Position numbers and translations under genes: made by a program
In this document: piece by piece, positions 2,333-40,407 of the stretch
Layout: each line of letters begins with the position of its first letter
Numbering within the stretch: position 1 is the stretch's first letter
The notes under the pieces: model-generated
Told to the model about the DNA's origin: nothing
Database searches by the model: none
Seen by the model: the letters and a program-made list of their open reading frames with translations, nothing else
Assembly: GCA_040755775.1 (NCBI GenBank)
Contig: JBFMAJ010000001.1
Span: 1 to 40,407, forward strand
Direction: 5' to 3'
DNA from: Nitrospirota bacterium
GTDB taxonomy: Bacteria; Nitrospirota; Nitrospiria; JACQCE01
Length of the DNA stretch: 40,407 bases

Positions 2333-2351
2333 GCCACATCGGATTCGTTGC

Positions 2352-5780: not shown

Positions 5781-5812
5781 ACGTTGATTTGTATCGATCA
5801 TGAGGGATCCTT

Positions 5813-6733: not shown

Positions 6734-6742
6734 GATCGACCG

Positions 6743-7901: not shown

Positions 7902-8381
7902 ATGATTCACGGAGTCCTCATCAAAGACTTAAAGGTATTATCCGATGACCGTGGATTTCTTATGGAAATGCTGCGCTCAGATGAGCCGATGTATGAGCGC
8001 TTCGGTCAGGTCTACATCACCGGCTGCAAGCGTGGCGTCGTCAAGGGCTGGCATTATCACAAAGAGCAGACCGATCATTTTATTTGCGTGCTGGGGCGGG
8101 CGCTGGTGGTGCTCTATGATCCCCGGGACGGCTCTCCGACCAAAGGCGCGGTGGAAGAGTATTACCTGGAGGCGCCGCCGGCCGCGAGCCGTCCGTCGAT
8201 CCTGTTGAAAATTCCCCCCTACGTCTATCACGGGTTTACACCCTCCGGGTGCGACGAGGCGCGCATTATCAACGTCCCGACGCTGCCCTACCGGCATGAG
8301 CAGCCGGACGAGTTCCGCCACCCCTGGAACAGCGCCGATATCCCGTATCGGTGGCCCGCGGACATAACACGGGGGGGATAA
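7902..8381 (+). CDS. rmlC: dTDP-4-dehydrorhamnose 3,5-epimerase-like cupin (short RmlC family)
   Basis: Internal ATG at 7902 of ORF 7842..8381. MIHGVLIKDLKVLSDDRGFLMEM...VVKGWHYHKEQTDHF matches the RmlC-type cupin pattern. The gene abuts rmlB (stop 8379-8381, ATG 8382). Confidence 0.7.
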   Translation: MIHGVLIKDLKVLSDDRGFLMEMLRSDEPMYERFGQVYITGCKRGVVKGWHYHKEQTDHFICVLGRALVVLYDPRDGSPTKGAVEEYYLEAPPAASRPSILLKIPPYVYHGFTPSGCDEARIINVPTLPYRHEQPDEFRHPWNSADIPYRWPADITRGG

Positions 8382-17896: not shown

Positions 17897-18724
17897 ATGG
17901 ATTATTTGGAGTACTACCAGCTCAAGGAGCAACCCTTCTCGATCGCCGTCGACAACCGCTTCTACTACAACAGCAGCCAGCACAGCGAGGCGCTGATCCG
18001 GCTGCGCTACGCGGCGGACACGCAGAAGGGGCTGGCGCTGCTGGTGGGCGACGTCGGGGCTGGCAAGACGACGCTGGCCCGCCGGCTGCTCGACGAGCTG
18101 GATGAGCGGTTCTTTCACGCGGCGCTGCTGGTCGTGATCCATGCGGGGGTCACGCCCGAATGGCTCGTGAGAAAGATCACGATGCAATTGGGGGTGGAAA
18201 AACCGTCCGATGACAAAACCGAGCTGCTGTCCCAGTTGTACCGGCGGCTGGTGGAGCTCCATGATCAGAACAAAAAAGCGGTCGTGCTGATCGACGAGGC
18301 GCAAATGCTCGGCACCAAGGGGCTCATGGAGGAGATTCGCGGCATTCTGAACATCGAGCTGGATGGCCAGAAGCTGCTGACGTTCGTGCTGTTCGGCCTG
18401 CAGGAGCTGGACAACAACCTGTCCTTGGACTTGCCGCTCAAGCAACGGGTGGCGATCCGCTATCAATTGACCTCGTTCACGCTGGCGACGACGGAGGATT
18501 ACGTCCGGTACCGGTTGCAAATCGCCGGGGCCACGCGGGACCTCTTCAGCAAATCGGCCCTCAAGGCCGTGCACGACTACTCGGGAGGGATCCCGCGGCT
18601 GATCAACACCATCTGCGACAACGCGCTGCTCGAGGGGTTTTTGCGCAAGAAGGAGCAGTTGGAGCCGGAGTTGATCCGCGAGGTGGCCGCCGATTTGAAG
18701 CTGCTCGAGCCCGCCGGCGCTTGA
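17897..18724 (+). CDS. ExeA/GspA/MshM-like AAA ATPase (short form, no C-terminal peptidoglycan-binding domain)
   Basis: MDYLEYYQLKEQPFSIAVDNRFYYNSSQHSEAL is the typical ExeA-family N-terminus. Walker A is GDVGAGKTTL and Walker B is VVLIDEAQ. It also has the GGIPRLINTICD motif. 275 aa. Confidence 0.85.
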   Translation: MDYLEYYQLKEQPFSIAVDNRFYYNSSQHSEALIRLRYAADTQKGLALLVGDVGAGKTTLARRLLDELDERFFHAALLVVIHAGVTPEWLVRKITMQLGVEKPSDDKTELLSQLYRRLVELHDQNKKAVVLIDEAQMLGTKGLMEEIRGILNIELDGQKLLTFVLFGLQELDNNLSLDLPLKQRVAIRYQLTSFTLATTEDYVRYRLQIAGATRDLFSKSALKAVHDYSGGIPRLINTICDNALLEGFLRKKEQLEPELIREVAADLKLLEPAGA

Positions 18725-18760: not shown

Positions 18761-18835
18761 GCGGGCGTAGCTCAGCGGTAGAGTCCCAGCTTCCCAAGCT
18801 GGTTGTCGTGGGTTCGAATCCCATCGCCCGCTCCA
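18761..18835 (+). tRNA. tRNA-Gly (anticodon CCC), CCA encoded
   Basis: Hand-folded cloverleaf. Acceptor stem is GCGGGCG/CGCCCGC and the D arm is GCTC-AGCGGTA-GAGT. The anticodon arm is CCAGC-TTCCCAA-GCTGG, which gives anticodon CCC. The T arm is GTGGG-TTCGAAT-CCCAT. The discriminator is U, followed by CCA. Confidence 0.95.
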
Positions 18836-27910: not shown

Positions 27911-28021
27911 GGTTGAGGGTAAGTGAAGGGCGAGGAGCTTGTCAATAGATTCGGGGAACGGTTTCCAACGGCGTTGAGCGGCAGGACGACATTGGACGGC
28001 AGGTTTGAACCCCTTGTCTTC

Positions 28022-28050
28022 TTGACAGAAAGGGCGATCACCCCTACCTT
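28022..28050 (+). promoter_or_regulatory. Candidate promoter (TTGACA-N17-TACCTT)
   Basis: TTGACA at 28022-28027 and TACCTT at 28045-28050, upstream of the GTG at 28094. Confidence 0.35.
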
Positions 28051-28093
28051 TTCTATTGAGGGCGTGGTACGGCCGCCCGGAGAAGGGAACGAC

Positions 28094-28909
28094 GTGTACA
28101 TCGAGTACTGGGGCTTTCAACGCCTTCCATTTGAAAATGTGCCGGATCCCCGGTTCTATTTTCCCTCCAGCCAGCATGAAGAAGGGTTGCACCGGATGCT
28201 CTATGCCGTCACACAGCGCAAAGGGGCGGCAATGCTGACCGGCGAAGTGGGCTGCGGAAAAACGCTGTTGTCGCGCGAATTCCTCAAGCAATTGAATGGC
28301 GGCCAAGAGTACAACGTTGCCTTGATCACCAATCCCTCGTTTCCGGTGCTCGAATTTTTACAGGAAATCCTGTACCAGTTCGGCGTCGGCTCCGTTCCGA
28401 AAAAGAAGATCGCCATCCTGCACCGGCTTAATGACCACCTGCTCGAGAACGAGCAGAAGGGGATTGCCAGCGTGATCGTAGTGGACGAGGCGCAGGCGGT
28501 CCGTGATCTACAGATCCTCGAGGAGCTGCGGCTGCTGTTGAATTTTCAGCGCAACGACCGTTTTCTCCTGACGCTGGTGCTGCTGGGCCAGCCGGAACTG
28601 CGGGAAAAGCTGCTGGAGATTCCCCAATTCGCCCAGCGCATCGGGATTCAGTACCACTTGACGCCGTTGGAATTGCCCGACGTGGAGCGCTACGTCAAAT
28701 GCCGCCTGAAGGCGGCCGGCGGCTCCGAGACGCTGTTTGACGCCGATGCGATCTATTTGATTCACGACGGCAGCAAGGGCATTCCGCGGGTCATCAATCA
28801 TCTGTGCGATCTCTGCCTGCTGGCGGGCGCCATGGCCAAACTGTCGGGCATTGACGGCACGCTGGTTCAAAAGGCGACCAAGAACAGCCAGTTCGCGGCC
28901 GTGTCATGA
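28094..28909 (+). CDS. ExeA/GspA/MshM-like AAA ATPase, second paralog (short form)
   Basis: GTG at 28094 preceded by GGAGAAGGGA. VYIEYWGFQRLPFENVPDPRFYFPSSQHEEGL aligns residue for residue with the N-terminus of the 17897 gene. Walker A is GEVGCGKTLL and Walker B is VIVVDEAQ. It also has KGIPRVINHLCD. Confidence 0.8.
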   Translation: MYIEYWGFQRLPFENVPDPRFYFPSSQHEEGLHRMLYAVTQRKGAAMLTGEVGCGKTLLSREFLKQLNGGQEYNVALITNPSFPVLEFLQEILYQFGVGSVPKKKIAILHRLNDHLLENEQKGIASVIVVDEAQAVRDLQILEELRLLLNFQRNDRFLLTLVLLGQPELREKLLEIPQFAQRIGIQYHLTPLELPDVERYVKCRLKAAGGSETLFDADAIYLIHDGSKGIPRVINHLCDLCLLAGAMAKLSGIDGTLVQKATKNSQFAAVS

Positions 28910-29997
28910 GCGATCAGAAGCCGATCCTTCGTTACAGCGAGCTGGCGCAAACGATGATGCCGGCCGGGGGCGGCGCGCCCGACGGCGGGAGCGGAAAGTC
29001 CGCCGACATCGCATTTCGCGAGATCGAGGGATTGAAGGCGGCCAAATCCGGGCCGGCCACTCCCCGCGCGCCGGTGATGGTGCCCGACAATCGGGCGGGC
29101 GAGCTCTTTCGCCAGGCGACCCGGGAGGCCCGCATCGTCTACGAGGGCGTGCGGCAGGGGCAGCCGCTGAGAATCGAGCCGCTTTTCGGCCTCGCCGAAT
29201 CGATTGTCGCCCATCCGTCGGAGGATCATCTGATCCGGCACATGTTCGACGATCAGCGGCGCGCGCCCACCGTGCATCGCAATGCCGCGACCTGCGCCAT
29301 CATCGCGGCGCGGATCGGCCGGGGATTGGGCTATCCGAAGGACGATCTGGTCCAATTGACCGTGGCCGGGCTGCTGCATGACATCGGCGTTGAAAAGCTT
29401 CCCACCAACCTGCTGGAAAAACCGGGCAAGCTGACGTCGGAGGAATTCGCCATGGTGCAGACTCACCCGGAGTGGGGCTACCGTCTCCTGCACCAGCACG
29501 CGCCGAAATATCCGATCGTCGCGCAGATCGTCCGGCAAGAGCACGAGCGGGAAGCGGGACAGGGCTACCCCGACAAGCTGACCGGCGAGGCGATTCTGGA
29601 GCCGGCCAAAATCATCGGCGTCACCGATATCTACGATGCGCTGATCACGCCGCGTCCGTATCGAAAGGCCTTTTGCCCGCACGAGGCGATTCAAGAGCTG
29701 CTTGACTGCCAGGAGCGTATGGGATATGCTCGCCACGTCGTGCGCGCCTTGATCCAGCAATTTTCCTTGTTTCCGCCGGGATGCTGGGTTGAGTTGAGTT
29801 CCCATGAAATCGCCCGGGTGATCCAAAGCAACAGCCGCTCGCCCTTGCGCCCCGTGGTGGAAGTGCTCTACGCGGCCGATCATCAGCCGTTGGTGCCGCC
29901 CCGCGTCATCGATCTGGACGAAAATCCTCTCATGCACATCACGGCCTCGCTCTGCACGGATGAGATTCCGGCGTCCAAGCCGGCTCATGGGGGGTAA
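28906..29997 (+). CDS. HD-GYP-type domain protein (variant motif) with an uncharacterised N-terminal region
   Basis: ATGA overlap with the upstream ATPase gene. LLHDIGVEKLP...LTSEEFAMVQTHPEWGY...EHEREAGQGYPDKLTGEAI...VTDIYDALITPRPYRKA follows the HD ... GYP layout. Confidence 0.8.
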   Translation: MSDQKPILRYSELAQTMMPAGGGAPDGGSGKSADIAFREIEGLKAAKSGPATPRAPVMVPDNRAGELFRQATREARIVYEGVRQGQPLRIEPLFGLAESIVAHPSEDHLIRHMFDDQRRAPTVHRNAATCAIIAARIGRGLGYPKDDLVQLTVAGLLHDIGVEKLPTNLLEKPGKLTSEEFAMVQTHPEWGYRLLHQHAPKYPIVAQIVRQEHEREAGQGYPDKLTGEAILEPAKIIGVTDIYDALITPRPYRKAFCPHEAIQELLDCQERMGYARHVVRALIQQFSLFPPGCWVELSSHEIARVIQSNSRSPLRPVVEVLYAADHQPLVPPRVIDLDENPLMHITASLCTDEIPASKPAHGG

Positions 29998-30006
29998 GAT
30001 CCGCCA

Positions 30007-31152
30007 CTACCGAAACGGCAATCGGCCGAGCAGGCGGAATGCTTGGCCGGAGAAGCGGCCCACTCTGGACAGGTAGCCGATGCCGAGGTTCCATGGCGAG
30101 GAAGAGCCGACCATTTCCTCCATGACCGATCGTTGTGGCCATACCAGTTGAGCAAGGAACCGAAGCCGTACGAGCGGGTCCTCGATCGCCAGGAGATAGA
30201 GGAGATCGCCCATTCCATCAATCCGCCGATTGCGCGTTAACAGCGTGAGCAGTCGTTGTTCCACACAATTGAGCCGGGGAGCGGCCGCCGGCGGCGCATC
30301 GAACGGCCACGACTGTCCAATGACGTTCTGCAAATAGGATGAGACAAAATGGAAAGGCTTTTCGAGGTTGAGTTGACCGGCTCGTTCACGCAGAAAGGTT
30401 GGCGCGTCTTCTTGCGCATGCACCTGAAGAAGCCGGCCGATATCCACAAACCAGATCAACCGGCCAAATGAATGTTTTTGCAAGTGCGCACAAAGCAGGA
30501 TGATCTGATCGACTGAGGAGGGAATCCACGCGCCTGGGAGGTTGCCTCGCCAGGGTATGGCCGACTGCCAGAGGAGCGTATCATCGACCCGAAGCGGATT
30601 CCTCGCCTGCGGCTCCACCCGGGAGAGATAGGCCAGTTCGGGATGAAGGTCGACGCAGATGTCCCGTTTTGCATAGGTCGGCGGATAGCGATGAAGGGGG
30701 AGATAACCAAGCCGGATCAGCACCCGTTGCGCCTGCGGCAAATGATGTCGTGGAATCAACAGGTCGATGTCGCTCAACGGCCGCGCGCCAGAAGAAGGAT
30801 AAATCCGCTCCGTGATCGCCATGCCTTGCAGGAGTAGAAAGCGGAGTCCTTCCTGATCGAACGCTTCGGCCATCTGCTCGACGGCTCGAGCCTTTCGTGC
30901 GTAATCGATCTGGTTGCGCAGATGAGTGTGGCGCAGTGACCGGCTCACGGACGGGGGCAGCTTCGCCTCCAGACCCGTCTGCAGGACCTGTTCATAGAAA
31001 AGACCGACTAACCCCTCTGACGATGCCCGTTCAAGCAGACCTGACCAATCGGTCATCGAGCAAAGCAGTTGTTGAAATTCTTCGCTTCCGCCGGCATTGC
31101 AGGCCAAGCGACTTGACATGAGGAGCAGGCGCTGGTTTACATGGGCGTCCAT
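30007..31152 (-). CDS. Uncharacterised nucleotidyltransferase family protein (NTP_transf_5-like)
   Basis: 381 aa. ...LRFLLLQGMAITERIYPSSGARPLSDIDLLIPRHHLPQAQRVLIRLGY... is the G-x-x...D-x-D nucleotidyltransferase fold pattern typical of the family found next to PqqD and HPr-kinase-like genes. Confidence 0.65.
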   Translation of the reverse strand: MDAHVNQRLLLMSSRLACNAGGSEEFQQLLCSMTDWSGLLERASSEGLVGLFYEQVLQTGLEAKLPPSVSRSLRHTHLRNQIDYARKARAVEQMAEAFDQEGLRFLLLQGMAITERIYPSSGARPLSDIDLLIPRHHLPQAQRVLIRLGYLPLHRYPPTYAKRDICVDLHPELAYLSRVEPQARNPLRVDDTLLWQSAIPWRGNLPGAWIPSSVDQIILLCAHLQKHSFGRLIWFVDIGRLLQVHAQEDAPTFLRERAGQLNLEKPFHFVSSYLQNVIGQSWPFDAPPAAAPRLNCVEQRLLTLLTRNRRIDGMGDLLYLLAIEDPLVRLRFLAQLVWPQRSVMEEMVGSSSPWNLGIGYLSRVGRFSGQAFRLLGRLPFR

Positions 31153-31164
31153 GTCGGCGCTTCC

Positions 31165-31193
31165 ATCTTAGTCGATCTTCACGTATCCTTCAA
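31165..31193 (-). promoter_or_regulatory. Candidate promoter on the minus strand (TTGAAG-N17-TAAGAT)
   Basis: The reverse complement of 31188-31193 is TTGAAG and of 31165-31170 is TAAGAT. The -10 box ends 12 nt before the ATG at 31152, giving a very short leader. Confidence 0.4.
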
Positions 31194-31232
31194 CGCATCC
31201 CGAGCACGTATAGACAGACAACGCCGCCGAGC

Positions 31233-31262
31233 TTGACAAATCGCCGCTGATGGGGTCATCTT
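31233..31262 (+). promoter_or_regulatory. Candidate promoter (TTGACA-N17/18-(T)CATCT(T)) ending 5-6 nt before the ATG at 31268
   Basis: TTGACA at 31233-31238 and the -10 box at about 31256-31262. It shares the extended motif CTTGACA-R-ATCGCCGC ... ATCTTAA with the promoter at 32050. Confidence 0.4.
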
Positions 31263-31267
31263 AACTT

Positions 31268-31714
31268 ATGCTGTGGGAGGCGGATCCGGATGCCGCCGCA
31301 TTCGACCCGCGTATGATGGAACGAGACGAAACAGTATGGCTTACCGTTGAGGGCCGCAGCATGAGCCCGGTCCTGCGTTCCGGCGACGCCGTGATGATTC
31401 GTTGCTGTACGGCCGACGCCGTAAAACCCGGTGACGTCATCACTGTCGCTGATCCCGCCGGTCTGTGTACTCATCGTTTGATCATGATAACCCACGAGGG
31501 AGGAAAACGCCTGCTTTGGACCAAGGGTGACGCGTGTGCGCACTGGGATGATCCCATCGATTCCGAGGCGTTACTGGGCAAGGGCGTCGCCATGTTGAGG
31601 GGCGGGCGGCATCTCTCGCTTGAGAAGGGGTGGCGCGCGCTGAATTTCGTTATGCTTGGTGTTTCCATGGTATTAGGAGGGCTGCTATGGGTGAAATGGA
31701 CGTTGCGCGTTTAG
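31268..31714 (+). CDS. S24/S26-family serine peptidase, SipW/archaeal-type signal-peptidase-like, with a C-terminal TM helix
   Basis: VEGRSMSPVLRSGDAVMI...KPGDVITVADPAGLCTHRLI...LWTKGDACAHWDDPI parallels the GSMEP...GD...THRI...TKGDNN layout of SipW-type peptidases. The C-terminus ALNFVMLGVSMVLGGLLWVKW is hydrophobic. Confidence 0.65.
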   Translation: MLWEADPDAAAFDPRMMERDETVWLTVEGRSMSPVLRSGDAVMIRCCTADAVKPGDVITVADPAGLCTHRLIMITHEGGKRLLWTKGDACAHWDDPIDSEALLGKGVAMLRGGRHLSLEKGWRALNFVMLGVSMVLGGLLWVKWTLRV

Positions 31715-31992
31715 ACCGGATCCCGGTCAAAGCGCCGCAGACGGCCTATCAAGTGCTCGATGAGCAAGCGGTTGTCCTTGACATCACCGCAAAAATTTTG
31801 CGGGGATTCAATCCCGTTGCCAGCCGCATTTGGCATCTGGTGGATGGCAGACGAACGATCAAAGAGATTGCCGTGACAATCGCCGAAGAATTTGCCGGCG
31901 ATGAAGCCGAAATTGTCCGCGATGTCGACGCGTTCCTTCATGAACTGACCGACAAGCAGCTGGTGGTCTTTTCCCCCGCTCCGATTACGTAG
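31687..31992 (+). CDS. PqqD-family protein (stand-alone RiPP recognition element-like)
   Basis: ATG at 31687 preceded by AGGAGG. YQVLDEQAVVLDITAKILRGFNPVASRIWHLVDGRRTIKEIAVTIAEEFAGDEAEIVRDVDAFLHELTDKQLV follows the PqqD pattern (beta-strands, then a winged helix, then a ...L.e.gLv ending). 101 aa. Confidence 0.75.
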   Translation: MGEMDVARLDRIPVKAPQTAYQVLDEQAVVLDITAKILRGFNPVASRIWHLVDGRRTIKEIAVTIAEEFAGDEAEIVRDVDAFLHELTDKQLVVFSPAPIT

Positions 31993-32049
31993 TCTTTTCA
32001 GTGGTTTTTGCGCCGGTCTTCCATCAGCCGATTCACCGTGCATTGCCAC

Positions 32050-32077
32050 TTGACAGATCGCCGCATCGCGCTATCTT
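32050..32077 (+). promoter_or_regulatory. Candidate promoter (TTGACA-N16-TATCTT)
   Basis: TTGACA at 32050-32055 and TATCTT at 32072-32077, about 120 nt upstream of the GTG at 32197. It shares the extended motif with the promoter at 31233. Confidence 0.4.
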
Positions 32078-32196
32078 AAGGAGTAACGCGGAAGAAGACG
32101 ACGGGTACACAGCCGCCGATAAGAGCAAACCCTGAGACATCGGGGGACGCAAAGCCACTCACCTCGTCGAAAAGACGGGGCAGGAGGGTTGCCGAA

Positions 32197-35100
32197 GTGG
32201 ACGGGATCCGAAACCGAGTCCGTTTCCTTTTCCAGGGAATGGCCTTTTTTTCTGTGACGCGCGCGCTCTCCTGTGGTGCGCTCTTCCTGCTTGTTCAGTT
32301 CATCGGCCCGTTCGCGCAAGGTCCTGAGGCTCTGGCGGCGCAGGCGGGTGACGGGCATGTGATCTACGGCAATAGAAATGCGTCGACGACGCTCTACAAC
32401 CGCTCGTTCAACGGAACGACGTTCGGGTTGGAGGGGGCGTTGCTTTTGGCGGATTTTGTTCGCTGGACCGATCTGGAGGCCTCACCAACTGACGCTGATC
32501 GATTGCTGCGGGGCGTGATCGAGAAAGGGACGAAAGCGGTCAAAACGTCAATTTTCGACTATTCAACCGGCACGTGGACTGAAATCACGACTGTCACGTC
32601 CAGCACGGGCAATGATTCTCGCCGCCTCTTCGACATCGAATTTGAGGAAGGCACGGGAGATGCGCTGATTGTGTACGCTAGCAGCACCGCGGGAGCCTTG
32701 CGGTACCGAACCCTGAGCTCGGCCTGCGCTCCGATTGCCACTTGCGATTGGAGCGCGCAACAGACGTTGAATTTTGCCGGAGGAACGCCTCGTACCGTGA
32801 GAGCCGCGAGAGATCCGGATTCAGACGATGTTTTGGTGGCCTGGGAGGACAGCAATTTCGATGTCTTCTCGGCCCTGTGGAACGGTTCCTCCTTCGGCGG
32901 CGTCACGATCCATGAGACGAACTCAATCAACGCCGCACTTGACACCAGCGGCGCGCCGCTGGGGCCAAAGGACTCTCAGGTATTCGATCTGGCCTGGGAG
33001 GGCGGTGGCAGCACTTCTGAAGCGATGGTCGCGTGGATGAACAGCGTCGGCGTGGTTCGGTACAATACGTGGACGGGCGGGGCTTGGGGTCTTTCGAATG
33101 ATCTCCCCGGATTGAGTTTCGCAGTGGGAGACAAAGCGGGTGGTCTCGTCGTCGCCAGCACCCGTTGGTCGGCTGCGCATAGCCGGATCGCTATTTTTGC
33201 AGGCAACGGAAATGAGAAACGCATCAAGGTCAATATCTGGTCCGGCACTGGCTGGGGGGCCGCGGAACTCCTGGGATCGGTGGGATCCGATATGCGAACG
33301 GACAAGGAGGGGTTGCCGCTGGAAGCTGTGTGGCAGGCGACGACCGGAAACTTATTCGTCCCGTTCATTGTAAGGCAGAATGACATCGGGGTGCGTCTTC
33401 GAATCTACGATGTAAGTTCGGATACGTGGGGCGTGGATCAGGGGCCGCTCACCGGAACCGACATTTTCAAGGGATACGTGCGGGCCGATGCCGATCGAAA
33501 TTCTCAAGCGGTCGGGATTGTGGCGGGAGACAAGAACGTCGACATCGGGACGTTCGGTCTGATTTGCGCGCATCCGTGCAGCGTGGGTACAGCAGCGGAG
33601 TGGACGACGACTGAAATCAATACGGCGGCGGCTGAAGACAAAATTGTCGCGGGAGATATCGTGTTTTATGAGGCGGTTTCACCCGCGCCAGTGACTGATT
33701 TGACGATCACTTCGTACAATGCGGAAAATGTGATTTTCTGGGCCAATCCCGCCACGCCCATCACGCATATACTGGTTCTGGCGAAGACTTCAGACTGCAC
33801 TTTTGGCATCGATCCGGGAGGCGCCGAGGGTATCGGCGCCACGGTGGGAAACGCGGTCGTCATCTATAACAACAACCCGGCCACAGATCTGTCTTCAACG
33901 CCTGTGACCGTCGGCGGCCCCACTGCCGTCAGCTACACGGCGGCGACCCAGCGCTTGGTGCACAGCGGTTTGACCGATGGCACCGTCTATTGCTACAAAG
34001 TTTATGCCCGGAACGGCAGCCAGCTTGACGACAACAGCGGTGCCGGTCGTCCGGCCGTCTCGGCCACGGGCACGGATGGGGTCGCGCCCAGCGCAGTTTG
34101 GACCTTCAATCTGGTCTCATCCGTGGGGGCGTCATTGGTTCAACCGAGCCTGGATCCTGGTGTTGCCATCTATACGTCCTATGGGAGCGGGACCATCGCA
34201 TCGATCGGTGCGACAGACGGGCTGCTGTCATGGCGCGCCACGCCGGCGGCGGGGGCGATACAAGATCAGTCGGCGATCGTGTGGATGTCGGGCTCTAGCA
34301 CCTGTGGCATCGGTGGGGCCACCACCTGTCTCTTCGCCGCCTCCCAGGATGGCTACGTCTATGCCCGAAATGCGGTCAGCGGCGCGGGGACGTGGAGCTA
34401 CCGGCATGCCGCAGGCGACGTCCTGCAAGGTGCGCTGGCCGTCCAGATTAAAGACTACAGCAATGCAGGCTACATGCCGACGGTTGACCGGCTGTTCGCC
34501 GCCACGCGCAACACCACCACCATCGCGAACAAGGTCTACGCGCTAGACCCCACGACGGCCCCGCCGACGATCGCCTGGCTTTTCACCGGCGGAGGCGTCA
34601 ATCCGGCCATGGACATGGTGAGTTCGCCCCCGGCGCTTGACTACGCCAACAACCGCCTCTACGTCACCAGCCATTCCAACGGCGGGACCCAGCGGAGCCT
34701 GTGGGTCTTCAGCACTGTCGATGGCGCCCTGCTCAGCACGGGAGCGTCGTATGGCGGCACGAGCCTGGGTGATGTGGCTGTTCCGCCCGCCCTCAGTGTT
34801 GATGGAAGCGTGGTCTATGCGGGGACGACGACCGGGACGATCGCCGCTTACAATACTATCGACGGTTCATTGCGATGGAGCTTTGCTGCGGGCAGCGCGG
34901 TAGCGTCGGGTCTCTGGGTGGAATTTCGCGCCGGTCTGGCGGGTAATCTCTTTTTCAGCACGGCCAACGGCAGAGTGTGGCGCATTCGCGATGATGGCGC
35001 CTCCGCTACCGATATATGGGGTGCCGGCGCTCCGACCGTTACGGCGGCTTCCTTCCCCGTGGTGATTCCATCGGCCGGCAAGGTTTACGTGGGTGGCTGC

Positions 35101-35325
35101 TCCGGCGCCAATTGTGCCGCAGGCAGTCAGGGGCGGCTCTACCAGCTCGACGTGGCGACGGGCGCCAAGGAACAGTGCAGAAACCTCGGCGCCAACGTCA
35201 CGGTCGGCGATCCCGCGTTCGATACGGTGTTTGAGCGGCTTCTCGTGGGTGCCAGCGATGGAAAAGTTCACACCTACGCAGCGCCGGCCGGCATTCTGGG
35301 AGGGGATCCGTCATGCACGCCGTAA
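32197..35325 (+). CDS. Large secreted or membrane-anchored protein: N-terminal hydrophobic segment, W-x-G-x-x-W/F-G repeat (propeller-like) region, FN3-like segment, C-terminal PQQ/BamB-like beta-propeller
   Basis: GTG at 32197 preceded by CAGGAGGG. MAFFSVTRALSCGALFLLVQFIGPFA is hydrophobic. Repeats occur every 55-62 aa (YSTGTWTE, ALWNGSSFGG, YNTWTGGAWG, NIWSGTGWG, VSSDTWG). The C-terminal part has repeats such as DGYVYARNAVSGAGTWSY, NKVYALDP, TIAAYNTIDGSLRWSF, GRLYQLDVATGA and DGKVHTY, typical of PQQ-like propellers. Confidence 0.7.
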   Translation: MDGIRNRVRFLFQGMAFFSVTRALSCGALFLLVQFIGPFAQGPEALAAQAGDGHVIYGNRNASTTLYNRSFNGTTFGLEGALLLADFVRWTDLEASPTDADRLLRGVIEKGTKAVKTSIFDYSTGTWTEITTVTSSTGNDSRRLFDIEFEEGTGDALIVYASSTAGALRYRTLSSACAPIATCDWSAQQTLNFAGGTPRTVRAARDPDSDDVLVAWEDSNFDVFSALWNGSSFGGVTIHETNSINAALDTSGAPLGPKDSQVFDLAWEGGGSTSEAMVAWMNSVGVVRYNTWTGGAWGLSNDLPGLSFAVGDKAGGLVVASTRWSAAHSRIAIFAGNGNEKRIKVNIWSGTGWGAAELLGSVGSDMRTDKEGLPLEAVWQATTGNLFVPFIVRQNDIGVRLRIYDVSSDTWGVDQGPLTGTDIFKGYVRADADRNSQAVGIVAGDKNVDIGTFGLICAHPCSVGTAAEWTTTEINTAAAEDKIVAGDIVFYEAVSPAPVTDLTITSYNAENVIFWANPATPITHILVLAKTSDCTFGIDPGGAEGIGATVGNAVVIYNNNPATDLSSTPVTVGGPTAVSYTAATQRLVHSGLTDGTVYCYKVYARNGSQLDDNSGAGRPAVSATGTDGVAPSAVWTFNLVSSVGASLVQPSLDPGVAIYTSYGSGTIASIGATDGLLSWRATPAAGAIQDQSAIVWMSGSSTCGIGGATTCLFAASQDGYVYARNAVSGAGTWSYRHAAGDVLQGALAVQIKDYSNAGYMPTVDRLFAATRNTTTIANKVYALDPTTAPPTIAWLFTGGGVNPAMDMVSSPPALDYANNRLYVTSHSNGGTQRSLWVFSTVDGALLSTGASYGGTSLGDVAVPPALSVDGSVVYAGTTTGTIAAYNTIDGSLRWSFAAGSAVASGLWVEFRAGLAGNLFFSTANGRVWRIRDDGASATDIWGAGAPTVTAASFPVVIPSAGKVYVGGCSGANCAAGSQGRLYQLDVATGAKEQCRNLGANVTVGDPAFDTVFERLLVGASDGKVHTYAAPAGILGGDPSCTP

Positions 35326-35339
35326 GCAAAGAGGGGCGC

Positions 35340-35903
35340 ATGGCATATTTCATGCTCATTGGTCTGTTGGTGTCGGGATTGGCGATGCTGCTGCCCGGCA
35401 CGGCATGGGCGGGCGGAGGCGGCCAAGAGTTGCGTCATTCAGGCGCCAGTGCCTTTCTGATTGTGGCGGGAACGAGCGTGTATGATCAGGCCGGCCGAAG
35501 TCGTAGATCGGGGGGGATGCGGAAGACCCTGACGGTGAACACATCCTTTTCTATCTCGACCGTTCGTGACGTGTATGTGTATACCTATTGGGAGAATCTA
35601 TTTGGCGAGCATGATCTGATCATCTTGGTGTATAGTCCAGACGGTCAATTGTATCAAAAACGGGTCGTGCCCATCTCCATCGGCCAATTATCGTCGTCGA
35701 CCCGGCAGGTGCCAGGGGTGGAGAATGTCGTGGATGTTCAACGCACCACCCCCCTGGGCCGGTACGAGGTGTCAACGGTGCAACTCCCCATCGCGGGCAC
35801 CTGGATTACGGAACATCGGCTCTTGGGGACGTGGCGGGTCGACGTGTTGCTGGACAAGGCATCGGCACCCGTCACCAGCGGGACCTTTATCATTACGGAA
35901 TGA
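35340..35903 (+). CDS. Hypothetical secreted protein (signal peptide; no recognisable family)
   Basis: ATG at 35340 preceded by AGAGGGG. MAYFMLIGLLVSGLAMLLPGTAWAGGGG is a signal-peptide-like N-terminus with an AWA-G cleavage-type site. 187 aa. Confidence 0.55.
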   Translation: MAYFMLIGLLVSGLAMLLPGTAWAGGGGQELRHSGASAFLIVAGTSVYDQAGRSRRSGGMRKTLTVNTSFSISTVRDVYVYTYWENLFGEHDLIILVYSPDGQLYQKRVVPISIGQLSSSTRQVPGVENVVDVQRTTPLGRYEVSTVQLPIAGTWITEHRLLGTWRVDVLLDKASAPVTSGTFIITE

Positions 35904-35933
35904 TCCTCCCCCCGGTTCTGGGGCGCCTCCTGG

Positions 35934-35962
35934 TTGCTGGAACAGTCCGGGTGGGGTATAGT
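35934..35962 (+). promoter_or_regulatory. Candidate promoter (TTGCTG-N17-TATAGT) for the small ORF / kinase / rSAM unit
   Basis: TTGCTG at 35934-35939 and TATAGT at 35957-35962. The predicted leader of about 29 nt carries GGAGGA at 35985-35990. Confidence 0.45.
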
Positions 35963-35997
35963 GGTGGCTGATTGTCACACGATTGGAGGAACTGAAG

Positions 35998-36153
35998 ATG
36001 GCTGAGGAACGGGAAGCCCCAAAAAAGCCGCAGCCGTACGTCAGGCCAAAGATCGAGTGGGAGGAGCCGTTCGAGCCGGTGACGTCGGCGATCAGTTGCG
36101 CGAAACGACCGGGGCAAGGTGTCCCCAGCTGCATGGCCGCGCCTCGAGTGTGA
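35998..36153 (+). CDS. Untracked 51-aa ORF, candidate precursor peptide: MAEEREAPKKPQPYVRPKIEWEEPFEPVTSAISCAKRPGQGVPSCMAAPRV
   Basis: Translated by hand. It is too short for the supplied ORF track, whose shortest entry is 60 aa. GGAGGA lies 7 nt upstream of the ATG, one of the best SD sequences I noticed in the window. Third codon positions are mostly G/C, like the real genes here. The N-terminal half is charged and the C-terminal part holds two Cys residues. It sits immediately upstream of the HPr-kinase-like and rSAM/SPASM genes. Confidence 0.45.
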   Translation: MAEEREAPKKPQPYVRPKIEWEEPFEPVTSAISCAKRPGQGVPSCMAAPRV

Positions 36154-36160
36154 GGGGTTG

Positions 36161-36973
36161 GTGGGCGCGTATTCTGTCGTGCTTGAAATGGCGGGCGTCG
36201 CCGGCGCGGTGACGACGCGCGATCGGGCCGTGGCGGAGCTTCTGCGTCATCGGTATCGCGCCTTCTTAACCGAGAAACCGCCGCGTTTCACCGTCGCGGC
36301 CGTTGTTGACCTTCGTGCGGGTGGGCAAGGCGATCCCTTGACGATTACAACCGGGCCCGTTCACGCACAATGGCGGAGCGGAAGGGTGCGTCTGTCCGGC
36401 GGCGGCTTTTTCGCCGCTTTTGATTGGACGTCTCGACGAGGGACCGTTGCCAGCCCGCTCAACCTGACGCCGATCGACCTGCTGCTCAAAGTGATTTACA
36501 TGCAGCTGCTGCTGCGCGAGCGGGCTTGCTTTATCCATGGCTGCGCCGTGGAGCGCGAGGGGCGCGGCTATCTTTTTTTCGGCCCGAGCGGAAGTGGCAA
36601 ATCCACGCTGGCGCGGACGGCCGGCGGCGCGGTCCTGGCCGACGAGCTGGTGATCGTGAAACGGGGCGTGGAGCGGCGGCCGAGCTATTCGCTTTACGGC
36701 ACGCCGTTTTGGGGCGGCCTCAACCGACGGGCTCCGTTGACAGGGCTCTTCGCCCTGCGTTTTCATCCGGACGCCTCTTCTTTGGCCCCCCTGTCGCGGG
36801 TGCAAGCCTTGCGACGGCTGCTTCCCTGCCTTGGCGGTTTCGGGGCCCCCCGATCTGACGATGCCCGTCTGTTCGAATGGGCGTCGATATTGGTCCGGGA
36901 TCAGCGGTGTCATGAAATTTGCCGCTCGGTCCGTTCCGAACCCTGGGACTGGTTTTATGCTGTTGCCGCCTGA
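36161..36973 (+). CDS. HPr-kinase-related protein (HprK C-terminal-domain-like P-loop)
   Basis: ORF 36119..36973 contains CFIHGCAVEREGRGYLFFGPSGSGKSTLA...LADELVIV, the HprK-type H-G...G-x-S-G-x-G-K-S layout. The start is uncertain: GTG 36119, TTG 36158, GTG 36161 or ATG 36188. I chose the first GTG after the small-ORF stop. Confidence 0.7.
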   Translation: MGAYSVVLEMAGVAGAVTTRDRAVAELLRHRYRAFLTEKPPRFTVAAVVDLRAGGQGDPLTITTGPVHAQWRSGRVRLSGGGFFAAFDWTSRRGTVASPLNLTPIDLLLKVIYMQLLLRERACFIHGCAVEREGRGYLFFGPSGSGKSTLARTAGGAVLADELVIVKRGVERRPSYSLYGTPFWGGLNRRAPLTGLFALRFHPDASSLAPLSRVQALRRLLPCLGGFGAPRSDDARLFEWASILVRDQRCHEICRSVRSEPWDWFYAVAA

Positions 36974-38123
36974 CGCGCACGGCCTCGTCGATCCCGGTTC
37001 GCCGTCCCATTATGCCCGATGGACCGAAGAGGCGGCCCGCCGCTATCTTCCGGTGAATGTCCTGATGGAGCTAACGCATCGATGCCATTTGGATTGCGTC
37101 CATTGCTATCTCGAAGACAACCACCGCCACACCGACAAGCGACGGGAGCTGACCGACGCCGAGGCCTGCGGCGTGATCGATCAGTTGGTCGAGGCCGGGG
37201 GATTGTTCCTGACCTTGAGCGGCGGGGAATTGCTTCTGCGCAAGGATGCCGTGGCGATCGCCCGTTATGCGCGCGGCAAAGGATTGGCCCTGCGGCTCTA
37301 CACCAGCGGAACATTGATCACCGACCGGCTGATCGAGGAGATGATCGCCCTCCATCCGCTGTCGGTGGAGTTCTCGCTCTATTCGGCCGACAATCCGGCC
37401 CTGCACGATGCGATCACCAGGGCACCGGGTTCGCACCAGAAGACGCTGCGGGCTGTTCGCGTTTTCGCGGGCCGCGGGGTCCCCGTGGTGATCAAGACGC
37501 CCCTGATGCGTGAGATTTTTTCCGAATATCCCAAGATCGTGCGATTAGCCCAGGAACTGGGAATTGCCTACCTGCTGGATCCGACAATTAACCCGAAGAA
37601 CGACGGGGAAAACTCTCCCTGTCGATTCAGGCTGTCGCCGGAGCAGCTGGCCGCGCTCTATGCCAACCCAAGCATCCCGGCCCCGCCGGAGATGCAATGG
37701 ATCGGCAAGGCCCGCCGCCATCCGGAGGATGAGGTCTGCAATCTCGGGAAAACGGGCTGCGCGATTTCTCCGTTCGGCGACGTCTATCCGACGGTGGGTT
37801 TCCCCTGGTCGGCGGGCAACGTGCGGGAGAGGCCCTTCGGCGTCATCTGGCGGGAGGCGCCGTTGTTTCGAAAATTGCGTGCCTTGACGGTGAAGGATCT
37901 TGCCACCTGCTCCGGTTGCGAGAAGTTCGCCTATTGCGGCCGCTGTTGCGTGTGGGCCTTGATGGATGACGGCGATTTGCTGGGTCCGTCGCTCTGGGCC
38001 TGCGAACTGGCCGCCGCCAAAGAGCGGGCCGCCGGCCTTCCTTCCGAACCGACCCCGTACCAGCGGGCCCGACAGCACAACCCACGGGAGCCGCGCGGGG
38101 TCATGATCGACACACTGTTCTGA
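36957..38123 (+). CDS. Radical SAM enzyme with a C-terminal SPASM domain
   Basis: ORF 36831..38123. LMELTHRCHLDCVHCY is the CxxxCxxC cluster and LTLSGGELLL is the GGE motif. The C-terminal CNLGKTGCAISPFGDVYP...CSGCEKFAYCGRCC fits the SPASM Cys pattern. I prefer the ATG at 36957 (17-nt overlap with the upstream gene). The ATG at 36912 is also possible. Confidence 0.85.
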   Translation: MLLPPDAHGLVDPGSPSHYARWTEEAARRYLPVNVLMELTHRCHLDCVHCYLEDNHRHTDKRRELTDAEACGVIDQLVEAGGLFLTLSGGELLLRKDAVAIARYARGKGLALRLYTSGTLITDRLIEEMIALHPLSVEFSLYSADNPALHDAITRAPGSHQKTLRAVRVFAGRGVPVVIKTPLMREIFSEYPKIVRLAQELGIAYLLDPTINPKNDGENSPCRFRLSPEQLAALYANPSIPAPPEMQWIGKARRHPEDEVCNLGKTGCAISPFGDVYPTVGFPWSAGNVRERPFGVIWREAPLFRKLRALTVKDLATCSGCEKFAYCGRCCVWALMDDGDLLGPSLWACELAAAKERAAGLPSEPTPYQRARQHNPREPRGVMIDTLF

Positions 38124-38189: not shown

Positions 38190-38218
38190 TTGACAGATTG
38201 GAAGGAGTCGTCTACAGT
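38190..38218 (+). promoter_or_regulatory. Strong candidate promoter (TTGACA-N17-TACAGT)
   Basis: TTGACA at 38190-38195 and TACAGT at 38213-38218, 18 nt before the ATG at 38237. Confidence 0.5.
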
Positions 38219-38236: not shown

Positions 38237-38989
38237 ATGAATCACGTACGGAAATCGTCGAGAACCCATGTGAAAGCGATACTGAAACAAATGAGCAGTA
38301 CGCTGTGGATGGGGGTCATCGTCGGGCTGCTGGCGGGCTGCGCGATCAACACGCCGACGCCAACGGTGACCGAGCCGCAGGAGCTGGCCAAAGCCAGGCA
38401 GATCATCATCAGCCCCGGCGACGTGCTGGAAGTGATCATCCGGCGGGGCTCGGCGGAGGACACCTTCACCTCGACCGTCCGGGACAACGGCATCGCGTCC
38501 ATCTCGGTGGTCGATTTGGACGTCAAGGGATTGACGCTGCTGGAGGCGGAGCACAAGCTGGCCGAGGCGCTGACGCCGTTCGTCAAGGAGCCGCGCGTTC
38601 AGGTGCTGTTCAAGCAAAAAGTCATCTCCGATCGATTTTTTGTCTTTGGCGAGGTCAACAAACCGGGTGTGTTTCCGCTCGAACCCGGCACCACCATCGC
38701 GGATGCGTTGGGAAAGGCCGACGGCTACAACAAAACAGCCTATCTGCCGAGCGTGCGGATCCTTCGCGGGGGACTGGAGCACCCGGAAATTTTGCCCGTC
38801 GACGTAGACCAGCTCCTCTACAAGGGGAATCAGGGCCAGAACCTGCTGCTCAAAAATCAGGATATTGTCTTCGTCCCGCGGACGAGGATCGGGGATTGGA
38901 ACAGGTTTATCGAAGAGATCAGGCCGACGCTTGAAGTCATCACCTTGCCGCTGCAGTCGGTGATCCTCGGCCGGGCCGTCAAGGATTAG
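38237..38989 (+). CDS. Polysaccharide export protein (Wza / EpsE-like; Poly_export + SLBB), lipoprotein
   Basis: LWMGVIVGLLAGC is a lipobox. ISPGDVLEVII...VFGEVNKPGVFPLEPGTTIADALGKADGY...NQDIVFVP are typical motifs of the polysaccharide export family. An alternative start is the ATG at 38291. Confidence 0.85.
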   Translation: MNHVRKSSRTHVKAILKQMSSTLWMGVIVGLLAGCAINTPTPTVTEPQELAKARQIIISPGDVLEVIIRRGSAEDTFTSTVRDNGIASISVVDLDVKGLTLLEAEHKLAEALTPFVKEPRVQVLFKQKVISDRFFVFGEVNKPGVFPLEPGTTIADALGKADGYNKTAYLPSVRILRGGLEHPEILPVDVDQLLYKGNQGQNLLLKNQDIVFVPRTRIGDWNRFIEEIRPTLEVITLPLQSVILGRAVKD

Positions 38990-38997
38990 GGGCAGAC

Positions 38998-40407
38998 GTG
39001 GCTCAATACGAGTTGAATCTTCGGGACTACTGGCAGATCGTCCGCAAGCAGCGGCGCACCATCGCGCTGACGACCGTCCTGGTCGCGCTGGCCTCCTTCG
39101 GCCTGTCGCAACTGCTCAAGCCGGCGCCGCAGTACGAGGCGACGGCCAGCGTCAAATACGACCGCTCCAGCAATTTTACCGGCCTCTTCATGGAAGTCAT
39201 GACCTATTCATACGCCGACGACATTACCAGCCAGACGGAAGTGATCAAAAGCTATCCGGTCATTGAAGCGGCCGCCCGTTTAGCCGGATTGGTTGCTCCG
39301 GAAACGCCCACCGAGCAGATTCGCCGGGAGCCCGAGCTCCTGGCCACGGTGCTGAACCTCCAGCGGCGGGTCAAGGCCGAGCGCGAGGGCAATACGAACA
39401 TCATCCGGGTGACGGTCACGGCGGGCCGGCCGGAGGCGGCGGAGCAGCTGGCCAACAGCGTCGTCGAAGCCTACCAGCAGGAAAACATCTATCAGCGCAA
39501 CCGTCAGGTGGACGAGGCCCAGAAATTCATCGAGCAACAGATGTCGATGGTGGAAACGCAGCTGCGGGCCGCCGAAGCCAAGGTGGAGGAATTCAAGCGC
39601 ACCAACGACGTGGTGGACCTGAGCGAAGAGGTCAAGGTGCAATTGACCGAAATGGCTCGGGTGGAATCGGAACATGCCAAAACACTGCGGACGCTGGAGG
39701 AGCTCACCGATCAGATCGACCAGCTTCGCCGCCAGGGCTCGTTGAGTTTGAGCAGCCAGGCCGGCTCGCCCGCCCCGGCCGATCCCGCGCGGATTTTCAC
39801 CGAGGAGGCGGCCGCGCAGATCTTCATGCTCAACAGCCGGCTGATGGATCTGCTGCAGGAGCGCGACACGCTGCTGATCAGCTACCATCCGGGCCATCCA
39901 CAGGTGAAGGACCTCGATCAGAAAATTCAGGTCATTCGCGAAGAGATGCTCCGGGAATTGAGCGCCAAGCGGGGGACGTTCCAGCGGCGGGAAGCGCAGT
40001 TGGGCGAACGGCTGGCGGACTTCAAAAAACAATATTTCAGCGTGCCGGAAAAAGCGCTGCAACTGGCCCGGATCGAGCGCGACGTCAAGATCAACAATGA
40101 CATTTATCTGCTGCTGAAGACGAAATATCAGGAAGCGCTGATCAAGGGCGCCGAAAAAATCATCGAGGTGACGCAACTTCAGCCGGCGTTCGCCAGCGCG
40201 GTTCCGATCAACGTGCCCAACGTGCTCCTGAACGTGCTCGTCGGCGCGCTCATCGGCTGCCTGCTGGGGCTTCTGATCGGATTCATCCAGGAGTCGTTCG
40301 ATACCTCCCTGGGCACCATCGAGGACGTGGAGTCGTTCCTGGGGCTGCCGGTGCTGGGCGTGCTGCCGCCGGCCGGCGCCGACGTGATGAAGTACGCGTC
40401 GTCGCCG
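38998..40407 (+). CDS. Polysaccharide chain-length determinant / co-polymerase (Wzz/GumC family), 3'-truncated by the window edge
   Basis: Translated by hand from the GTG at 38998: VAQYELNLRDYWQIVRKQRRTIALTTVLVALASFGLS...YEATASVKY...SQTEVIKSYPVIEAAA...NIIRVTVTA...AEQLANSVVEAYQQ.... This is followed by a long coiled-coil region and a second TM helix (VLLNVLVGALIGCLLGLLIGFI). The frame stays open to the last base, and the ORF is absent from the track because it has no stop. Confidence 0.8.
   Translation, partial: MAQYELNLRDYWQIVRKQRRTIALTTVLVALASFGLSQLLKPAPQYEATASVKYDRSSNFTGLFMEVMTYSYADDITSQTEVIKSYPVIEAAARLAGLVAPETPTEQIRREPELLATVLNLQRRVKAEREGNTNIIRVTVTAGRPEAAEQLANSVVEAYQQENIYQRNRQVDEAQKFIEQQMSMVETQLRAAEAKVEEFKRTNDVVDLSEEVKVQLTEMARVESEHAKTLRTLEELTDQIDQLRRQGSLSLSSQAGSPAPADPARIFTEEAAAQIFMLNSRLMDLLQERDTLLISYHPGHPQVKDLDQKIQVIREEMLRELSAKRGTFQRREAQLGERLADFKKQYFSVPEKALQLARIERDVKINNDIYLLLKTKYQEALIKGAEKIIEVTQLQPAFASAVPINVPNVLLNVLVGALIGCLLGLLIGFIQESFDTSLGTIEDVESFLGLPVLGVLPPAGADVMKYASSP

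Follow-up and report, generated by a model that had tools for sequence, protein, structure and literature searches.

The window analysed here is a whole contig of 40,407 bp from a Nitrospirota metagenome-assembled genome, and the subject of this study is a group of eight adjacent genes at positions 30007-38123. These genes probably form a maturation cassette for a peptide of the ribosomally synthesized, post-translationally modified type (RiPP), which belongs to an uncharacterised and widespread family. In this genome the cassette appears to be controlled by cyclic di-GMP (c-di-GMP), includes the genes of two secreted proteins, and lies beside exopolysaccharide (EPS) export genes. Domains were assigned by Pfam and NCBIfam profile searches, folds by AlphaFold2 (AF2) models and Foldseek, and RNA elements by Rfam. 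The first-pass annotation had proposed a RiPP-like maturation module; all eight of its genes exist with the domains it had stated (Pfam, NCBIfam, AF2/Foldseek), and its overall reading is supported. It had also named the findings that would speak against this reading: genes that do not co-occur elsewhere, a radical SAM enzyme grouping firmly with a non-peptide family together with a PqqD-like protein failing its profile, and no small open reading frame (ORF) conserved at the equivalent position. None of these was found. The eight genes are as follows.

30007-31152, minus strand (divergent): NTP_transf_5 nucleotidyltransferase (PF14907, E 6e-44)
31268-31714, plus strand: S26/SipW-type Ser/His peptidase, Peptidase_S24 (TIGR02228, 54.9 bits against a cut-off of 51.85)
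31687-31992, plus strand: stand-alone PqqD-family RiPP recognition element (RRE) (PF05402, E 9e-15)
32239-35325, plus strand: secreted propeller protein of about 1028 aa (PQQ_2 and Beta-prop_ACSF4 at residues ~718-990)
35313-35903, plus strand: secreted Ig-like beta-sandwich protein of 196 aa (AF2/Foldseek; no Pfam or NCBIfam family)
35998-36153, plus strand: gene of the putative 51-aa precursor peptide, MAEEREAPKKPQPYVRPKIEWEEPFEPVTSAISCAKRPGQGVPSCMAAPRV (GGAGG Shine-Dalgarno sequence, conservation)
36161-36973, plus strand: ScmC-like P-loop kinase with the fold of HPr kinase (HprK) and phosphoenolpyruvate carboxykinase (PEPCK) (Walker A motif, fold, weak NCBIfam matches)
36957-38123, plus strand: radical SAM/SPASM enzyme without a fused RRE (Radical_SAM E 1e-18, SPASM E 8e-7)

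Gene set and precursor peptide

Relatives of the cassette were collected by a genome scan with an alignment of the kinase, which gave 45 loci. L-numbers denote these loci or contigs, and counts out of 46 cover them together with the window, as obtained by ORF clustering. The kinase was accompanied by PqqD in 37 of the 46 loci, by a radical SAM/SPASM enzyme in 32, by NTP_transf_5 in 31 and by the S26 peptidase in 18. Other companions were the 196-aa protein (11/46), the propeller protein (10/46), an HD-GYP protein (8/46) and Wza (6/46). Two Nitrospirota metagenome contigs (L046 and L048) repeat the order of the window gene for gene, from an aminotransferase, an AAA_22 ATPase and the HD-GYP protein up to Wza, Wzc and Wzy. 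All eight genes together were found again in Nitrospirota and, rearranged, in Methylomirabilota/Rokubacteria, where they are arranged in at least three different orders and a methyltransferase is added. This SAM-dependent methyltransferase comes directly after PqqD in L007 (4154-5314), and also in L009, L010, L012 and L018, all from Methylomirabilota. The core of kinase, PqqD and radical SAM enzyme, with or without S26 and NTP_transf_5, is present in at least six further phyla, including Chloroflexota, Acidobacteriota, Omnitrophota, Planctomycetota and Thermodesulfobacteriota; minimal cassettes (L050, L051) lie in housekeeping contexts. Co-occurrence outside this genome was thus confirmed, for the full set in Nitrospirota and Methylomirabilota and for the core more widely. 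The arrangement is far beyond chance, since the same gene set is found in dozens of loci; judged by this recurrence, the cassette is a real, multi-phylum gene unit.

The 51-aa ORF carries no annotation in the NCBI record, where the consecutive locus tags _00175 and _00180 flank it. It is preceded by a GGAGG Shine-Dalgarno sequence, and the equivalent position is called as a 54-56-aa gene in other assemblies. Small ORFs in Nitrospiria share 68-85% identity with the window peptide, and the family is still recognisable in other phyla. A hidden Markov model built from eight sequences detected more members beside the core in many loci, and homologues are present in more than 25 loci. Codon comparison of the window with its five closest relatives (22 conserved codons) gave synonymous/non-synonymous changes of 11/2 for L001, 7/2 for L003, 9/3 for L046, 9/2 for L048 and 9/3 for L002. 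From these codon changes, the 51-aa ORF is judged to be a conserved coding gene under purifying selection. The small ORF is therefore conserved at the equivalent syntenic position, on the evidence of the synonymous excess and of the gene calls in other assemblies.

Every member of the precursor family has the motif [YW]-x-x-[PA]-x-[IFVL] in its N-terminal part, with an acidic or hydrophobic stretch after it; the typical leader form is Y-x-x-P-x-I(...)E. A leader-then-core pattern is indicated, because this motif is common to precursors across phyla and the C-terminal part varies clade by clade. No Pfam or NCBIfam model matches any of the precursors. The first Cys stands at a fixed spacing of 12-14 residues past the motif. 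A Cys after the leader motif is present in 27 of the 27 precursors from loci with the radical SAM gene (two or more in 26 of them), and in none of the three precursors from the Chloroflexota loci that lack it. This tracking is the strongest indirect evidence that the radical SAM enzyme acts on the Cys residues of this peptide, which also contains conserved Trp and Glu. Ahead of the first Cys there is often a small-x-small sequence (AIS, ALA, AVA, AMA), which fits signal-peptidase specificity. Outside Nitrospirota, 19 of 22 precursors end in Ser; in the Nitrospirota precursors the last residue is V, L, F or R, and the window precursor ends in APRV. The general features of a RiPP locus are therefore present: a conserved precursor with a shared leader and a variable core, encoded beside an RRE and modifying enzymes.

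Some precursors depart from the single-gene arrangement. Two or three tandem genes of 38-45 aa come after the radical SAM gene in L024 (6657-7501, Acidobacteriota) and L037 (12026-12463, Patescibacteria-group). These tandem precursors end in PLTS, PITS or PTTS, and a sulfatase-TPR (tetratricopeptide repeat) protein lies near the L024 set. Three Chloroflexota loci (L014, L022, L030) have the kinase and PqqD, no radical SAM gene, and Cys-free precursors with a conserved G-[ST]-P-[LI]...D-P-L-N-P stretch at their end. The latter may represent a separate product type within the same leader family.

Maturation enzymes

The kinase had been described in the first-pass annotation as an HPr-kinase-related P-loop protein, and the NCBIfam, Pfam and structural results agree with this. 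Its NCBIfam matches are weak (TIGR04352, TIGR04355, ScmC and hpr-ser, the HPr(Ser) kinase), and its precomputed Pfam family is PF27840 'ScmC', with a weak or faint match. The AF2 model has a predicted local distance difference test (pLDDT) score of 90. Foldseek placed ATP-dependent PEPCK as the best match (E 3e-10, query TM-score 0.53-0.58), followed by HPr kinase/phosphorylase (E 3e-5 to 1e-3). The structural match and the Walker A motif GPSGSGKST together show a HPr kinase/PEPCK-like P-loop fold. Searches of the PDB sequences, by single sequence and by profile, returned generic P-loop and PEPCK matches only. The Walker A motif, H126, D161-E162 and P182-F183-W184 are invariant in 27 homologues. 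A profile search found 1,148 representatives of 50% identity clusters at E<=1e-30 and 10,225 at E<=1e-10; the ScmC-like kinases are thus a large, uncharacterised family.

The radical SAM/SPASM, PqqD-like and NTP_transf_5 identities proposed earlier hold at the profile E values listed above. The CxxxCxxC motif and a Cys-rich SPASM tail are visible in the translation of the radical SAM enzyme, and a DxD-type motif (SDIDLL) in that of the nucleotidyltransferase. The radical SAM enzyme reaches no NCBIfam cut-off; its best scores include AhbD (129 bits vs 500), MftC (117 vs 265) and PqqE (87 vs 381). Because these best scores are all far below the cut-offs, the enzyme groups firmly with no non-peptide family, and the PqqD-like protein passes its PF05402 profile. 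Relatives among the PDB sequences (E ~1e-10) are SkfB, PqqE and BlsE-type enzymes (cytosylglucuronate decarboxylase).

The peptidase was confirmed as SipW-like, since it passes the cut-off for archaeal/SipW-type signal peptidase I. The SM, HR and KGD motifs (Ser/His, SipW/Sec11-type) are invariant in 14 homologues. No N-terminal hydrophobic anchor is present in the window protein or in 13 homologues, and the sole hydrophobic segment of the window protein is C-terminal (residues 124-142). The gene accompanies the core also in loci that lack the secreted proteins. In Omnitrophota L028, a lasso-B2-like Transglut_core3 protease stands directly before PqqD in place of the S26 gene. The S26 protein may therefore be read as the leader peptidase of the cassette, both from its company with the core in the absence of the secreted proteins and from its replacement by a B2-type protease. 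A role as an ordinary secretory signal peptidase was also considered, and is weakened by the missing anchor and by the linkage to cassettes without secreted proteins.

c-di-GMP control, secreted proteins and polysaccharide export

Between the PqqD and propeller genes lies a c-di-GMP-I riboswitch that the first-pass annotation did not notice. The control elements and the neighbouring genes are listed below.

32050-32077, plus strand: Sigma-70-like promoter TTGACA-16-TATCTT (-35/-10 kept in L001, L046, L048)
32114-32196, plus strand: c-di-GMP-I (GEMM-I) riboswitch aptamer (Rfam RF01051, 61.4 bits)
32220-32252, plus strand: hairpin and U-run, expression platform (overlaps the probable Shine-Dalgarno sequence and ATG of the propeller gene)
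38237-38989, plus strand: Wza-like export gene (Pfam/NCBIfam)
38998-40407 (window end), plus strand: Wzz/GNVR Wzc-like export gene (Pfam/NCBIfam)
28906-29997, plus strand: HD-GYP protein of the c-di-GMP phosphodiesterase type (Pfam HD_5, E 2e-30)

The aptamer matches the model over its full length (1-87), with 61.4 bits against a gathering score of 35. Orthologous riboswitches at the same position were found in L001, L046 and L048 (54-60 bits), where the hairpin is also kept with compensatory changes. The propeller gene had earlier been started at GTG 32197. This start is probably wrong, as the aptamer lies directly upstream and the hairpin and U-run follow; the gene probably starts at ATG 32239, which would give a protein of 1028 aa. 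The genes downstream of the riboswitch overlap or are at most 94 nt apart, and therefore one switch probably governs the propeller, beta-sandwich, precursor, kinase and radical SAM genes together. The adjacent HD-GYP protein has intact HD and GYP motifs, and its homologues adjoin the cassette in L001, L007, L022, L023, L028, L046 and L048. In the Omnitrophota locus L028 (3208-3282 and 9312-9719), a separate c-di-GMP-I riboswitch lies about 6.5 kb before the cassette on the upstream side, and two HD-GYP genes and the B2-like protease are also present.

The propeller protein consists of a signal-like segment, a repeat region of about 600 aa, an FN3-like stretch and a C-terminal PQQ-type beta-propeller. 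It had been described as a double propeller; the C-terminal propeller is supported by PQQ_2 and Beta-prop_ACSF4, whereas Pfam matches nothing in the N-terminal ~600 aa, where the only pattern is a periodicity of about 55 aa (W-x-G-x-x-[WF]-G). A homologue search with the 1042-aa protein, which was word-index-limited, returned the protein itself and one partial match. The 196-aa protein has no Pfam or NCBIfam match; its AF2 model (pLDDT 80) gave generic beta-sandwich matches in Foldseek (E ~1e-3), and no function is drawn for it because the fold matches are only generic. An apparent propeller match in L020 was in fact a Peptidase_C25 protein, which is unrelated.

The propeller and 196-aa genes are always adjacent, and in two phyla the pair remains linked to the cassette across at least three gene orders. 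In L002 (195-9723) the pair is tandemly duplicated upstream of the precursor. In L049 (908-4495) PqqD and the propeller protein form a single in-frame fusion of 1195 aa, joined by a hydrophobic segment. The constant adjacency, the duplication, the persistence through rearrangements and the L049 fusion argue for a functional link between the pair and the cassette. L049 also holds a second PqqD and radical SAM pair, which is flanked by Polbeta/HepT and PemK toxin-antitoxin genes.

The Wza-like gene starts 113 nt after the radical SAM gene and has its own promoter-like site (38190-38218). Downstream genes of the Wza/Wzc type were also found in L001, L003, L004, L046, L048 and L053, and Wza-Wzc-Wzy follow the cassette in the closest relatives of the window. 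Other Nitrospirota have a convergent ABC-2 transporter with glycosyltransferases. EPS exporters were likewise found next to the cassette in Omnitrophota L029, Planctomycetota L020 and Thermodesulfobacteriota L013; none were present in the Methylomirabilota flanks or beside the minimal cassettes. The question whether the cassette always lies next to wza/wzz, raised in the first-pass annotation, thus has a divided answer: it does so in the closest Nitrospirota, and a few other phyla have EPS exporters beside it, whereas Methylomirabilota and the minimal cassettes do not. On this gene-neighbourhood evidence, the association with EPS export is recurrent, not obligatory.

The cassette is further surrounded by glycosyl- and sulfotransferases and sugar-nucleotide enzymes. 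The region 315-5702 contains GT2 glycosyltransferases and at least four ORFs with sulfotransferase domains, and this cluster suggests a sulfated polysaccharide. The ORFs 1364-1780 and 1787-2332 resemble one sulfotransferase that is split by a frameshift or in a pseudogene. Two ORFs of the glycan region have no Pfam match, at 5798-7654 (minus strand, 618 aa) and 7977-8633 (minus strand, 218 aa). The window also contains two AAA_22 ATPase genes. One (27923-28909) adjoins the HD-GYP gene and is conserved with L001, L007, L020, L046 and L048; it overlaps an aminotransferase gene on the opposite strand, and its true start is uncertain. The other (17897-18724) comes after a 1006-aa TPR protein, and tRNA-Gly(CCC) (18761-18835) lies between it and a Liv-type branched-chain amino-acid ABC importer operon.

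Proposed pathway and comparison with known systems

In the proposed pathway, PqqD would bind the leader and present the peptide to the radical SAM/SPASM enzyme. The latter would cross-link two core Cys residues, most likely through thioethers of the sacti- or ranthipeptide type. The ScmC-like kinase would phosphorylate the peptide with ATP, in most clades at the C-terminal Ser, as the HprK homologues of lasso pathways do; NTP_transf_5 might then elaborate the phosphate. The anchor-less S26 peptidase is predicted to cut off the leader at the small-x-small junction before the first Cys, which would leave a product of about 18 residues (CAKRPGQGVPSCMAAPRV). Expression would be set by c-di-GMP, the level of which the adjacent HD-GYP enzyme would lower. 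The peptide would thus be made together with the propeller and beta-sandwich proteins in a matrix- or EPS-producing state.

Several points weigh against this pathway. No product has been observed, and the enzymatic steps are all inferred from homology. The top sub-threshold scores of the radical SAM enzyme are those of AhbD and NirJ, enzymes of the heme pathway, and not those of peptide maturases. The cores of the Nitrospirota precursors have no conserved Ser, Thr or Tyr, and one example, CGKRPGQGAACMGAPMF, has none at all, which leaves the kinase without an explained target in this clade. Methylomirabilales deviate from the small-x-small junction (FST|C, FSM|C), and no exporter is encoded within the cassette. 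The riboswitch is absent from more distant cassettes (for example L002, L047, L049 and L007), and whether it acts in the on- or off-direction is not readable from the sequence.

Other explanations were weighed against the maturation of a free peptide. The peptide might be a cross-linked small subunit or a peptide-derived cofactor that, after export, joins the propeller and beta-sandwich proteins in an assembly. A precedent is the quinohemoprotein amine dehydrogenase, in which the gamma subunit QhpC, cross-linked by a radical SAM/SPASM enzyme, joins a beta-propeller subunit. The persistence of the propeller pair through at least three gene orders in two phyla, its duplication in L002, the PqqD-propeller fusion in L049, the single riboswitch ahead of the secreted-protein and peptide genes, and the conserved Trp, Glu and Cys of the peptide would all fit such an assembly. 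However, the secreted proteins are both missing from most cassettes of other phyla, neither redox domains (heme, flavin or others) nor a dedicated exporter are present, the L049 fusion comes from a single metagenome contig, and the W-E-E stretch falls in the apparent leader; this explanation is considered unlikely. The locus might also consist of two unrelated, interleaved modules, an ordinary RiPP cassette and a c-di-GMP-controlled pair of EPS matrix proteins, which are adjacent through shared regulation or inheritance. The minimal cassettes L050 and L051 without secreted proteins or EPS genes, the Methylomirabilota flanks without EPS genes, and the separate promoter-like site of wza are in line with this. 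Nevertheless, the propeller pair stays linked to the cassette across rearrangements in Methylomirabilota, where no EPS genes are nearby; the precursor, kinase and radical SAM genes follow the secreted-protein genes with overlaps or short gaps; and in Omnitrophota, Planctomycetota and Thermodesulfobacteriota the cassette again has EPS exporters as neighbours. Such an interleaving of unrelated modules is likewise improbable.

It might be argued instead that the enzymes act within the EPS pathway, on a sugar, a polysaccharide or a protein, and not on a small peptide, for example by sulfatase-type maturation or phospho-sugar decoration. The surrounding glycosyl- and sulfotransferases and sugar-nucleotide enzymes would agree with this, as would the kinase fold, which is nearest to the small-molecule enzyme PEPCK, and the non-peptide enzymes among the best sub-threshold matches of the radical SAM enzyme. 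By contrast, almost every locus encodes a PqqD-family chaperone and a leader-bearing small ORF, the Cys of the peptide tracks the presence of the radical SAM gene, the minimal cassettes lack glycan genes, and L028 has a lasso B2 leader protease; a substrate from the EPS pathway is thus very improbable. The RiPP-type maturation cassette remains the preferred reading. As a tentative and rather doubtful extension of it, the riboswitch-switched modified peptide might be no antibiotic but might serve a secreted propeller/beta-sandwich machine on the EPS matrix as its dedicated small subunit, cofactor or anchor, with a phospho-linked decoration made by the kinase and NTP_transf_5. If true, Methylomirabilota, and Nitrospirota related to nitrite oxidisers, would have a RiPP that is part of biofilm-matrix biology.

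The finding matters in several respects. The kinase family, with more than 1,000 cluster representatives, has no known product, and naming its precursor family makes the pathway testable. Tailoring enzymes known only from lasso peptides are combined with a radical SAM/SPASM core and a candidate leader peptidase of the S26 type, and this combination is absent from the described RiPP classes. Moreover, the riboswitch and the linkage to secreted proteins and EPS exporters point to a biofilm or matrix role in mostly uncultured, environmentally important lineages. The literature searched contained no description of this cassette and no paper linking c-di-GMP riboswitch control to a RiPP-type cassette; the PQQ-like cluster of the WasteFams preprint is a different cluster. 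The aptamer core of the RF01051 riboswitch is fully typical, whereas its control of a RiPP-type operon is unusual.

The closest described relatives are the SynChlorMet and HPr-rel-A cassettes, which are reportedly in-silico definitions by Haft. SynChlorMet (ScmC/ScmD/ScmE/ScmF; TIGR04249-04251, PF27840) similarly combines an HprK/PEPCK-fold protein, a stand-alone PqqD and a PqqE-like radical SAM/SPASM enzyme; but it has two radical SAM enzymes, whereas the present cassette has one. The present cassette additionally contains NTP_transf_5, the S26 peptidase, two secreted proteins, the riboswitch and a nameable precursor family. The kinase scores 18.7 bits against the 125 of the ScmC equivalog (TIGR04249), and its relatives from 10 other loci reach at most 43 bits; ScmD (TIGR04248) gives 29.3 bits vs 100, and ScmF and ScmE give 62.2 and 60.5 bits vs 400 each. 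The HPr-rel-A/B systems share an HprK-like kinase and a PqqD-family protein, and differ in that the present cassette has a radical SAM/SPASM enzyme. The HPr-rel-A/HprK-related systems also include a nucleotidyltransferase and are often located near exosortase/EPS loci. The window kinase scores 22.1 bits with HPr-rel-A (TIGR04352) and 20.4 bits with HprK-rel-B (TIGR04355) vs 200, and ten relatives from other phyla are also below the cut-offs. The first-pass annotation had not recognised the combination as a described RiPP class; this stands in so far as no curated cut-off is reached, whereas the triad was known in silico beforehand (Pfam ScmC, TIGR04249-04251, TIGR04352/04355).

The tailoring pair of lasso peptides (PadeK/PsmK with PsmN) is also similar. 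In a lasso precursor, the C-terminal Ser is phosphorylated by the HprK-type PsmK, and the addition of a hexose to this phosphate requires the NTP-transferase PsmN (PMC6993621), which bears out the lasso-tailoring role that the first-pass annotation had given for such proteins. As in that pair, an HprK-type kinase, presumed here to act on a RiPP precursor, is encoded with a nucleotidyltransferase-like enzyme, Ser is the last residue of most precursors in the present family, and L028 has a B2-type protease. In contrast, the radical SAM/SPASM enzyme is the defining enzyme of the present cassette, and the window precursor lacks the terminal Ser. No Asn-synthetase-like cyclase or B2 protease domain was found by Pfam and NCBIfam in any ORF of 30007-38123; among the relatives, a B2-like protein is confined to the distant L028. 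The reported absence of a lasso cyclase, a B2 protease and an ABC exporter from the window module was thus confirmed, and a lasso peptide was rejected for want of the cyclase.

The sactipeptide/ranthipeptide, PQQ and mycofactocin pathways share with the present cassette a PqqD-type RRE with a SPASM radical SAM enzyme, a short leader-core peptide and a Cys-rich core; however, they have no kinase, nucleotidyltransferase or S26 peptidase. Assignments to anaerobic sulfatase-maturating enzymes (anSME), PQQ and mycofactocin were rejected on the NCBIfam scores. For PQQ, PqqE scores 87.4 vs 381 bits and PqqD 37.7 vs 46, and the precursor has no Glu-x3-Tyr; for mycofactocin, MftC (TIGR03962) scores 116.7 vs 265 bits, and the precursor ends in APRV, not GVY. 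The genetic prerequisites of a sacti- or ranthipeptide are present: an RRE, a SPASM radical SAM enzyme, and at least two core Cys residues that track it. The cassette is best filed as a variant of the RRE-dependent radical SAM/SPASM RiPP pathways. What sets it apart is the newly nameable precursor family, the lasso-type tailoring enzymes and the putative S26-type leader peptidase and, in this lineage, the c-di-GMP riboswitch and the linkage to secreted proteins and EPS export.

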